Below, piece after piece: positions 44,079 to 46,132 of a stretch of 64,000 bases of DNA. The stretch comes from Eledone cirrhosa (Eukaryota), in contig OZ024751.1 of NCBI GenBank assembly GCA_964016885.1, forward strand, positions 41,354,001-41,418,000, written 5' to 3'. How positions within the stretch are numbered: the first letter of the stretch is position 1; each line of letters begins with the position of its first letter. Under the pieces are notes generated by a model. That model saw only the letters and a program-made list of their open reading frames with translations, was not told the origin of the DNA and ran no database searches. The translations under genes and the position numbers were made by a program.

Positions 44079-44489
44079 TATACGATATTAAACAAATGGA
44101 AACTATATTTATAAAACCATATTTATTTCATTATACATATTTCAGGGATACCATATTAAAAATATGGCATGCCTTCGTCAGATAAAATACAATATATAAA
44201 CAGTTTTATAAATAATTTTGACGTACCATATTATAAGCGACCATTAAATTAGGAAGCTGTCTGGATTATTTATAAAACTGTTTATATATTGTATTTTATC
44301 TGACGAAGGCATGCCATATTTTTAATATGGTATCCCTGAAATATGTATAATGAAATAAATATGGTTTTATAAATATAGTTTCCATTTGTTTAATATCGTA
44401 TATCTACTCCAATAACTTGTCGAGTGCTTTATATCAGTTATAAAATATTTACTTGTTGTAACCCAACAATTTTAAATAAAACTTTTGCA
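44079..44489. mobile_element. (TA)n-flanked element: 138-bp inverted arms, 48-nt loop, about 85-bp tail
   Basis: 44079-44216 is the reverse complement of 44265-44402. Confidence 0.9.
44294..44355 (+). ncRNA. Minimal type I hammerhead ribozyme motif (mirror copy on the minus strand at 44126-44187)
   Basis: ttttat-CTGACGA-aggcatgccatatt(ttt)aatatggtatccct-GAAA-TATGTA-TA-atgaaa, overlapping AATAAA. Confidence 0.75.
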
Positions 44490-44705
44490 TATATATATAT
44501 ATATATATATATATATATAATATATATATATATATATATATTATATATATATATATATATATATATATATATATATATATATATATATATATATATATAT
44601 ATATATATATATATAATTGGCGTGGGATGCTTAAAGCGTCCGTATGCGGTAGGCCGTTTGAGCACTCGATGCTCTTACCTTTGGAAACTCTGCTTCGAAG
44701 AATCG

Positions 44706-44802
44706 AGACGTATCTGAGGATCTTGCGATTTCAGAGTCAGGTTCGATCATGGCATCGATCGTGCCTCGAGCTGATCGTCAGAGAAACGATTGCAATATGT
44801 CT
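44706..44802 (+). ncRNA. Degenerate minimal hammerhead motif (UH reads CA) in (TA)n element 44617-44838
   Basis: agacgtat-CTGAGGA-tct...aga-GAAA-CGATTG-CA-atatgtct; 8-bp stem I. Confidence 0.6.
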
Positions 44803-45164
44803 AATACATTTTAATTCGTCGCACCACTGTTTCTGCGTATATGTATGTATATATATATATATATGTTTGTATGTATATATATATATGTATGCGTATACGT
44901 ATATATATATATATATATATATGTTTGTATGTATATATATATATATGTATGCGTATATGTATATATATATATATATATATATATATATATATATATATAT
45001 ATATATATATATATATATATGTTTGTATGTATATATATATATATATATATATATATATATATGTTTGTATGTATATATATATATGTATGCGTATATGTAT
45101 ATATATATATGTATATATATATATAATATATAAGAACAAAAGATGGTTAAAAGAGTTCCATGTA

Positions 45165-45231
45165 TTTTATTATGCGCATTTCAAAAACAAATATCATCAT
45201 GCAATAATATTTGTGTTTTCATCAGATAAAA
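45165..45231 (-). ncRNA. Intact minimal type I hammerhead ribozyme motif in (TA)n element 45122-45441
   Basis: ttttat-CTGATGA-aaacacaaatattatt(gcat)gatgatatttgttttt-GAAA-TGCGCA-TA-ataaaa: all core nucleotides present, 16-bp stem II (one mismatch, two G.U), perfect palindrome in helix III. Confidence 0.85.
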
Positions 45232-46132
45232 CAGGAAGACATGATATGAAGGTTAAAAAACACTTGTGGATAGTTCAGTTTTAAATCAACATATTGAAAT
45301 GCGCATAATAAAATATATGGAACTCTTTTAACCATCTTTTGTTCTTATATATTATATATACTCCAGTCCTACAAACTGTAGAGTGCTTCTTATCCGATAT
45401 CTGCATTGCTTTATTGTACTACAATAAAACTCACCTCCTACATATATATATATATGTATGCGTATATGTATATATATATATATATATATATATATATATA
45501 TAAGATGGTGAAAGCATTTCCGTGGTGAACAGCCACCGACACCCGCTGCATCAGCCATTCAACCTTACAGGGATCCTTCCTAACACGGGGTGGCAGGCCT
45601 ACCGATGTTTGCAGCGGGAATCAGTAGTCTGAGGACAAACAGACAAACGGAGGTTTCAATGATGAGCGGCACGAAAAGGAAGCGGTCGGTCAATGCTCAA
45701 TACCTTTCTCATCCGCATTAGGGGCTGTAGTACCCGGGTCTGTGGCCGAAGCGACAACATCTGCAATTTAGTCGATCTTACGACCTCGACTGTGAATATA
45801 TAAAGTCCCCTGGCAGAGTGTCAACATAGAGAATAAAAGAAATTTCAACGAAGTTATATAAATCATATTGTCTGAAACTCAAACATTGTGTGCCAACTTA
45901 CCATTCTTCGCAACAATTATAATATACGTCATACGGTGAATTTAATTATTTGGTGATTAACTCCCAGATTCTTATTGGCACAGAACACCTTATAAAAATA
46001 AACAGAACTTTTCTTTGAATCTTGATTAAGTCAAAACAATATATCCCACGATTATATACATAGATGGCAGAGAAACTTGCAGAATTCCATTCCATTCTCC
46101 CAATATTATTGTCATTATTTAATTTATTGTAA

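Follow-up and report, generated by a model that had tools for sequence, protein, structure and literature searches.

The three inserts that interrupt a single (TA)n tract in a 64,000-nt stretch of the Eledone cirrhosa genome (assembly GCA_964016885.1, contig OZ024751.1, positions 41,354,001 to 41,418,000; hereafter the window) are very probably 5'-truncated, inverted insertions into (TA)n of three protein-coding families of Penelope-like elements (PLEs) of the Hydra clade, with hammerhead ribozymes predicted to cut as dimers and with ends 6–9 bases before twin hairpins that likely set the start of reverse transcription. The inserts lie between (TA)n runs at about 44083–44488 (family A), 44616–44838 (family B) and 45122–45441 (family C), and in each of them two 5'-truncated arms with the same sequence fold back on one another. 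Such stumps with hammerheads in (TA)n are of a known kind, since hammerheads, (TA)n targeting, inversion and a one-sided tail have all been published for the Hydra clade. The original prediction, which was made from the letters of the window alone, had described remnants of PLE type that carry minimal hammerheads of the dimer type, are inserted as inverted, truncated copies and favour microsatellites, and this is borne out by coding masters and family alignments. It did not mention the great length of helix II or the paired hairpins by the 3' ends, and its description of the families as non-coding did not hold, the repeats of A, B and C having been traced to open reading frames (ORFs) for a reverse transcriptase (RT) with a GIY-YIG endonuclease.

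All three inserts possess the hammerhead grammar that had been proposed for them, with type I cores and a self-complementary helix III. Both copies in insert A have a stem I of 8 bp, CUGACGA, a 31-nt helix II, GAAA, UAUGUA and a UA cleavage site. The minus-strand copy of insert C, placed earlier at 45165–45231 and called canonical for its UGCGCA and UA, proved to be so, the intact motif running from 45233 to 45163 with H17 at 45171; the plus arm of the same insert begins at GAAA, without the first core box. The CA that had been noticed at the UH (cleavage) site of the insert B copy, listed at 44706, was also found, at 44793. It is private to this copy, UA being present in 69 of the 74 family B copies, and because CA here replaces the family's UA, the hammerhead of insert B is likely inactive, as judged from the sequence. 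Insert B had also seemed open to a reading as a tRNA-derived short interspersed nuclear element (SINE) with a fixed left end, which was rejected because that apparent end is the inverted tail. The four further sites named by the original prediction, at 18876, 19090, 43050–43120 and 61808, all belong to hammerhead families, but only one of them fits the proposed grammar with a six-base insert (N6) in full. An N6 parse of 43050–43120 and of 18876 failed at stem I, and other registers fit; family F, at 18928 (-), has a 7-nt insert with its UA site at 18883; in family D, helix III has 4 bp with an 8-nt loop (a 14-nt insert) and the cleavage site is GUA at 43122 (motif at 43084), while at 61808 (+) only the GAAA half is present, the whole family E motif lying on the minus arm. 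The family G cleavage site is UA in 24 of 27 copies, the window copy (19096) having UG. With a relaxed descriptor, the window gave three motifs, while 100 shuffles of it, made block by block with dinucleotides preserved, gave none. Duplexes of the helix III type were predicted at -2.2 to -10.5 kcal/mol.

Identity as Hydra-clade elements comes from the ORFs that the same repeats flank. A family A copy (L018) adjoined an RT-like frame; that query gave 24,654 first-look candidates, of which 150 were scored, at 91–100% identity, and ten long-frame loci were fetched. The resulting family A master (L092) consists of a repeat (1815–2039), an open frame of 749 codons, a 3' untranslated region (UTR) of 1.2 kb and a second repeat (5539–5763). 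The family B master (L302) shows the tail, a hairpin before the ORF (hairpin 2 below), an ORF that is broken and, at 6835–7004, the B repeat of the 3' side, and the family E master is L233. For family C, 27 of the 28 junction loci examined (30 fetched) run into a Hydra-type ORF that is 42–62% identical to that of A. The RT motifs are RIRWR and SDKTNN in A, RMRWR and DKTG in B, RLRWT and SDKTNN in C, and RVRWK and ADKTSN in E. A CxCx5C linker followed by a C-terminal GIY-YIG domain with CxxC and CxH could be seen by eye in A, E and B, the C-terminus itself in A and E, as the family B piece stops at the first C of CxxC. The N-terminal GIY-YIG and DKA motif of the Naiad clade were not found, the endonuclease being C-terminal and the motif DKT. 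Nearly all of the 52 ORF homologues are unnamed, the two named ones coming from Argonauta hians, and Atlas neighbours of the ORF carried HTH_animal, GIY-YIG and RVT_1 at shares of 13–100%, which is a lead only. Terminal repeats with a hammerhead flank the ORF in L092, L094, L096–L098, L233 and L302, giving the order 3'UTR, hammerhead, site 1, hairpin 1, tail, site 2, hairpin 2, ATG and RT/GIY-YIG ORF. In five of six elements the two repeats differ at 0–2 of 170 bases, compared with medians of 14.5–24 between elements. Some candidate masters were dropped: the ORF of L232 as a family C master, with another family's tail intervening, and ORFs near family B copies in L139 and L151, which belong to other elements. 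At L232:2050-4400 there is a further Hydra family, with an ORF about 40% identical to A that contains stops, its own tail and a second hairpin, and L139:264-1820 (-), next to a B copy, holds a frame of 519 codons that has a DKSG motif and comes from a different type of PLE.

Conservation across copies indicates that the hammerhead has been maintained in at least some families. Among 110 family A copies, differences from the majority amount to 10 of 1210 positions in the core and 350 of 3410 in helix II, with position N7 differing in 64 of 110; the helix III insert is self-complementary in all 110 and varies only among such words, seen in 55, 54 and 1 copies. Family C has 3 of 429 differing positions in the core against 39 of 1404 in helix II, and a self-complementary insert in 39 of 39 copies. 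Hammerheads are intact in 99 of 110 A and 37 of 39 C copies, and in family D a stem I C-G pair is swapped for A-U in 6 of 34 copies. The fetched loci, some 0.83 Mb that are enriched for the queries, were scanned with no filter on the insert. Inserts of 6 nt numbered 224, while those of 4, 5, 7 and 8 nt numbered 6, 0, 9 and 10; the UH site was present in 218 of the 224, and 14 of 16 sequence clusters had a fully self-complementary insert, against a background of at most 8%. Five shuffles of this set gave one motif in total. These counts fit the published dimer model (PMC4209133, and review passages on Lunse et al.), and the hammerheads of the inserts are predicted to be of dimer type, cutting in pairs through helix III. 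In helix II of A, B and C the first pair is A-U or U-A, without G10.1-C11.1, and the fourth is mismatched; a mismatched fourth pair is seen in 12 of 16 clusters.

How common such motifs are was estimated from a random sample of forty 10-kb stretches at round coordinates (400 kb, L260–L299), which yielded 39 motif rows (38 without one double count) against 2 in 20 shuffles. With insert lengths that were set after the families had been seen, and with rows that are not all Hydra, this extrapolates at about 95 per Mb to some 280,000 intact-looking hammerheads in the genome (Poisson range about 200,000–390,000). The association with (TA)n that the original prediction had expected was found here too, (TA)5+ lying within 260 nt downstream in 31 of the 39 rows, some of them not Hydra, against a 26.5% background. 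More than 26 nt separates the core boxes in 20 of 38 motifs, the longest at 103, and a C stands at the fourth helix II pair in 12 of 39 rows. Helix II domains of 31–103 nt are found in many families (31, 62 and 36 nt in A, B and C), and for most of the long ones the predicted fold is a closed stem, which in many cases branches. As 20 of 38 sampled motifs exceed the published Hydra helix II length, ribozyme counts in genomes of this kind are probably far too low; in a more speculative reading, set out below, a freely evolving helix II insert would hide most such ribozymes from standard descriptors. If they are transcribed, fold-back stumps at this density would also yield much double-stranded RNA. 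The longest helix II domains (89–103 nt) occur with a CGAUCG insert at minus-strand positions L228:-438, L114:-2517, L272:-5808 and L093:-4707. The random sample also contains other hammerhead families with helix III inserts of 4, 5, 7 and 8 nt, the commonest having an 18-nt helix II (7 of 39 rows).

The 3' ends of the copies are discrete and paired. Measured from the base after GAAA-N6-N2, each family has two, at about 49 and 138 nt in A, 53 and 133 in B, 38–45 and 134 in C, 26 and 97 in D, and 54 and 199 in E. Behind site 1 of families A to E lies a hairpin of the form (A/G)CUC...GAG(U/C), followed by RC, and in the repeat–ORF junctions of A and E a second hairpin lies behind site 2, not far ahead of the ATG; the distance from hairpin 2 to the start codon is 20–55 nt. 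Hairpin 2 was predicted for B and C before it was searched for, and the pattern matched 2 loci in B and 262 in C, with none for the reversed-pattern controls; of the two B matches, L302 leads into a broken Hydra ORF with a B hammerhead repeat at its end, and the other stops within a few codons. Among copies without read-through, (TA)n starts 7 or 8 bases before hairpin A1 in 42 of 72. The start is at -7 in 28 of 61 for B1, at -6 in 47 of 65 for B2, and at -7 in 13 of 15 for E1 and 19 of 22 for E2; by eye, the distance is 9 nt for A2 and 8 nt for C2, and C1 is ambiguous. Among 66 crude families, 34 have A-U and 7 have G-C as the outer hairpin pair, compared with 1 and 1 of 18 in a reversed control. 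When inverted pairs were classified with strict anchors and with L031–L060 left out, 84 of 87 had one end per site, two had two site-1 ends and one had two site-2 ends; in a looser first count, 279 of 403 arm pairs were unclassifiable, mostly through low-complexity UTR matches.

These observations may be arranged into a mechanism. The Hydra protein would nick both strands of the (TA)n target and, as we lean towards believing by analogy with the anole Poseidon element, dock on the two RNA hairpins and prime one cDNA per site from opposite (TA)n strands. Both cDNAs would usually stop after 60–300 nt and be joined head to head, and early stopping with such joining would give a fold-back stump with a tail on one side. 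The presence of three inserts in one tract may be due to each insertion leaving TA on both sides for the next. The hammerheads of the two terminal repeats quite probably pair through helix III and cut unit-length RNA from the full transcript. Circularisation of that RNA, by which hairpin 2 would fall behind the ORF, is a more tentative step and a rather doubtful one. If hairpin 2 is required, full-length copies that end at site 2 would have to be made from a template in which it follows the ORF, and this could come from a circularised unit or from tandem read-through; the near-identical repeats within one element are compatible with both. Four family C repeat–ORF junctions lie within 560 bp, two per strand, at G000:C2:216011836-216012393, and this short tandem and inverted cluster might bear on the idea of a circular template.

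The stumps themselves are likely dead copies and, as modelled, unlikely to cut, because RNA that reads through them would fold back and bury the ribozyme; in RNA through insert A (44079–44489), 348 of 411 bases are predicted to be paired, in a fold of about -224 kcal/mol. Three family D loci (L176, L178 and L198) carry private base changes common to both arms, which suggests that both arms were copied from one RNA molecule. In a fuller and more speculative form, which we think possible but would not presume, the two hairpins would act as a ruler: a protein dimer would dock on both and prime from both nicked strands about 7 nt upstream, a hammerhead dimer would cut and close the circle as the only unit-length template with hairpin 2 after the ORF, and the helix II insert would be free to reach about 100 nt. 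Priming at two sites by such a ruler would explain the fold-back, one-tailed insertions of PLEs. Start-site choice and the inverted, one-tailed build of PLEs, the closest relatives of telomerase RTs, are stated as open in passages of PMC8557442 and PMC11167929. If the twin hairpins hold, their fixed register of 6–9 nt allows a precise mutational test, for which intact, recently copied ORFs exist.

The same identity would allow the hairpins a different role, as endonuclease sites in DNA or as promoter or translation elements, with the ends set by nicked (TA)n annealing to TA-rich RNA spacers. Each end does fall in a short TA-rich spacer, hairpin 2 is near the ATG, some hairpins are weak, and the Penelope endonuclease has been reported, in passages of PMC11167929, to need tail DNA for recognition. 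The spacing to the hairpin, however, holds at 6–9 nt even though the spacers vary in sequence and two of them (B2, C2) match TA poorly; the outer pair covaries, and the upper stems stay paired with unrelated sequences, which fits a single-stranded structure. We therefore regard this role as possible but unlikely. It is more unlikely still that the hammerhead shape is kept without appreciable cutting, the motifs serving as protein-binding or structural modules of which the long helix II is the functional part. Minimal PLE hammerheads are described as cutting poorly in vitro even as dimers (passages of PMC4209133), the anole ribozyme as dispensable for insertion in vitro (passages of PMC11167929), and the mismatched fourth helix II pair would suit such a role, but over helix II lengths from 12 to 103 nt the motifs retain their catalytic positions, their UH site and a self-complementary helix III.

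Amplification of the inserts as short non-autonomous units, similar to SINEs, miniature inverted-repeat transposable elements or retrozymes, is improbable and was not favoured, because 5' ends vary between copies and the same repeat sequences flank ORFs. Short copies are indeed abundant (3379, 1778, 964 and 2582 first-look candidates), and family D copies often have the same fold-back point; the common junction of D was, however, in the query and recurs in different subfamilies, and in 26 family A arms met incidentally the 5' end falls anywhere between -117 and +65 relative to the core. Where 5' ends do cluster at fixed positions, this may reflect query choice or subfamily divergence. Copies were single or inverted, with no head-to-tail hammerhead units or arrays among those inspected, no genome-wide array search having been made. 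Chance matches in AT-rich fold-back DNA can hardly be credited at all: the region is AT-rich, and an Rfam scan of the window gave 179 matches, of which the 150 listed include no hammerhead family, but the shuffles of the window and of the random 400 kb, together with the family alignments, refute this explanation.

Several results weigh against the reading of the inserts as Hydra-clade insertions with predicted dimer hammerheads and twin start signals. The core is no better kept than helix II in families B (33 of 814 against 243 of 4588) and E (5 of 319 against 32 of 2465), intact hammerheads are limited to 47 of 74 copies in B and 18 of 34 in D, and monomer folds were unremarkable in four of six window motifs (z -0.26 to -1.2). 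The ORF gave no match when its sequence was searched against Pfam and PDB, and L101, one of the six elements compared, is without near-identical repeats. A number of the hairpins have low predicted stability (-1 to -3 kcal/mol), E2, whose outer pair is C-C, does not fold, and the hairpin pattern stands behind only 5 of the 39 random-sample rows. Most loci were fetched with tail-bearing queries, meaning that pairs of two tail-less ends are under-sampled. For Poseidon_Ac (PAc) of the green anole, passages of PMC11167929 report that hammerhead mutants had no effect on insertion in vitro, that the ribozyme needs protein, and that the start site is not homologous to the target.

Table 1. Features of the window that belong to the hammerhead-bearing families.
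Feature	Position	Strand	Remarks
(TA)n target tract, left of insert A	43981..44082		
Family A inverted arm, tail-less	44083..44216	-	end at site 1; arms 99% complementary
Family A hammerhead, intact	44124..44189	-	predicted cut after 44132
Family A sense arm with tail	44265..44488	+	end at site 2
Family A hammerhead, intact	44292..44357	+	31-nt helix II, UAUGUA; predicted cut after 44349
Family A hairpin 1 (ACUC...GAGU)	44406..44425	+	at tail start
(TA)n tract separating A and B	44489..44615		
Family B inverted arm, only tail left	44616..44678	-	end at site 2; 3' half of hairpin 1 only
Family B sense arm, tail-less	44679..44838	+	end near site 1
Family B hammerhead	44708..44800	+	CUGAGGA at 44714, 62-nt helix II, GAAA at 44783, CGAUUG, CA
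Degenerate (TA)n tract separating B and C	44838..45132		
Family C inverted arm, tail-less	45122..45292	-	site 1
Family C hammerhead, intact	45163..45233	-	CUGAUGA, 36-nt helix II, UGCGCA, UA; predicted cut 45171/45170
Family C sense arm with tail, truncated at GAAA	45294..45441	+	site 2
Family C hairpin 1	45360..45384	+	
Family F hammerhead	18875..18936	-	26-nt helix II, 7-nt helix III insert, UA at 18884-18883
Family F hairpin 1 (GCUC...GAGC)	18989..19009	+	
Family G hammerhead	19089..19178	+	57-nt helix II, CAAUUG; UG here
Family D fold-back insertion	42955..43140		hairpin 1 at 43012-42994 (-)
Family D hammerhead	43078-43128	+	12-nt helix II; core change CUGGUGA in window copy
Family E fold-back insertion	61437..61874		hairpin 1 at 61566-61503 (-)
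Family E hammerhead	61731-61628	-	85-nt helix II; C3G change in window copy

The window is AT-rich and dense in microsatellites, and the assembly measures 3.0 Gb. The (TA)n tract of the three inserts holds a fourth one, richer in GC, beyond family C at 45503–45800. Further along, at 46110–46714, there is a tRNA-like SINE in tandem with a period of 206 bp, which we take to resemble octopus SINEs. A satellite with a 29-bp unit in about 211 copies, higher-order periods of 79 and 108 bp and a strong GC skew occupies 31882–37537, and young minisatellite arrays are found at 24092–25766 (90 bp), 26395–27198 (39 bp), 27864–28660 (54 bp), 11507–12532 (31 bp) and 2587–3839 (32 bp).

Searches of open-access literature, mostly of main texts, turned up neither the long helix II nor the twin hairpins, which may nevertheless have been described earlier; a 2026 octopus repeat annotation mentions PLEs, and the words 'ribozyme' and 'Hydra' were not found in the available part of its main text. 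Metazoan PLEs are known to carry minimal type I hammerheads with CUGANGA and GAAA boxes and a palindromic helix III, predicted to act as dimers (Cervera and de la Pena 2014, PMC4209133, in part), and minimal hammerheads were also treated by Lunse et al. 2017, according to review passages in PMC6765202. As in Eledone, the metazoan copies are mostly solitary and truncated, with opposite-strand pairs 100–700 bp apart. According to the same passages of PMC4209133, however, the published minimal helix II has 7–8 bp opened by G10.1-C11.1, whereas here it extends to branched domains that reach about 100 nt, often with a mismatched fourth pair and lacking G10.1-C11.1. For copy number, those passages give 4,000–9,000 in their richest genomes, compared with an estimate of about 280,000 here.

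In PAc, two internal RT starts bound the tail, both strands are nicked and extended, and downstream RNA is needed (Frangieh et al. 2024, PMC11167929, in part). That element belongs to another clade, and its starts lie within the ORF, in a stem-loop rich in AC, the passages available describing no duplication of the signal; here, both starts precede the ATG, each 6–9 nt before its own hairpin. Non-LTR retrozymes, where LTR stands for long terminal repeat, are likewise short, non-coding, PLE-related and equipped with a type I hammerhead, but they are head-to-tail tandem units (bioRxiv 10.64898/2026.07.22.740005, in part), unlike the single fold-back stumps with variable 5' ends seen here.

The closest match is the Hydra clade of PLEs with a C-terminal endonuclease (EN+), which has (TA)n targets and hammerheads and includes Hydra-1_Obim of Octopus bimaculoides (Craig et al. 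2021, PMC8557442, in part). The features that define it in the passages available, namely an RWK-type motif, DKT in place of DKG, CxCx5C, and CxxC/CxH instead of CCHH, are accompanied in the Eledone families by the C-terminal GIY-YIG, (TA)n, a terminal-repeat hammerhead and the inverted 5'-truncated copy with a one-sided tail, the inverted truncated copy and the tail being published features of PLEs. The families differ from it in several measures. The published Hydra helix II is 12–26 nt long (26 rows, hand count), against 31–103 nt in many families here, and only two deviating spike-moss PLE-X rows of the published set reach about 50 nt, also by hand count. According to passages of PMC8557442, PLE tails are 30–40 bp, compared with 70–145 nt here, and Hydra elements are '<3 kb', compared with about 3.9 kb for family A. 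Twin hairpins are without mention in those passages, though the same hairpin can be seen by eye in the published coral, sea-cucumber and copepod Hydra consensi, and twice before the ATG in Hydra-1_Ajap.

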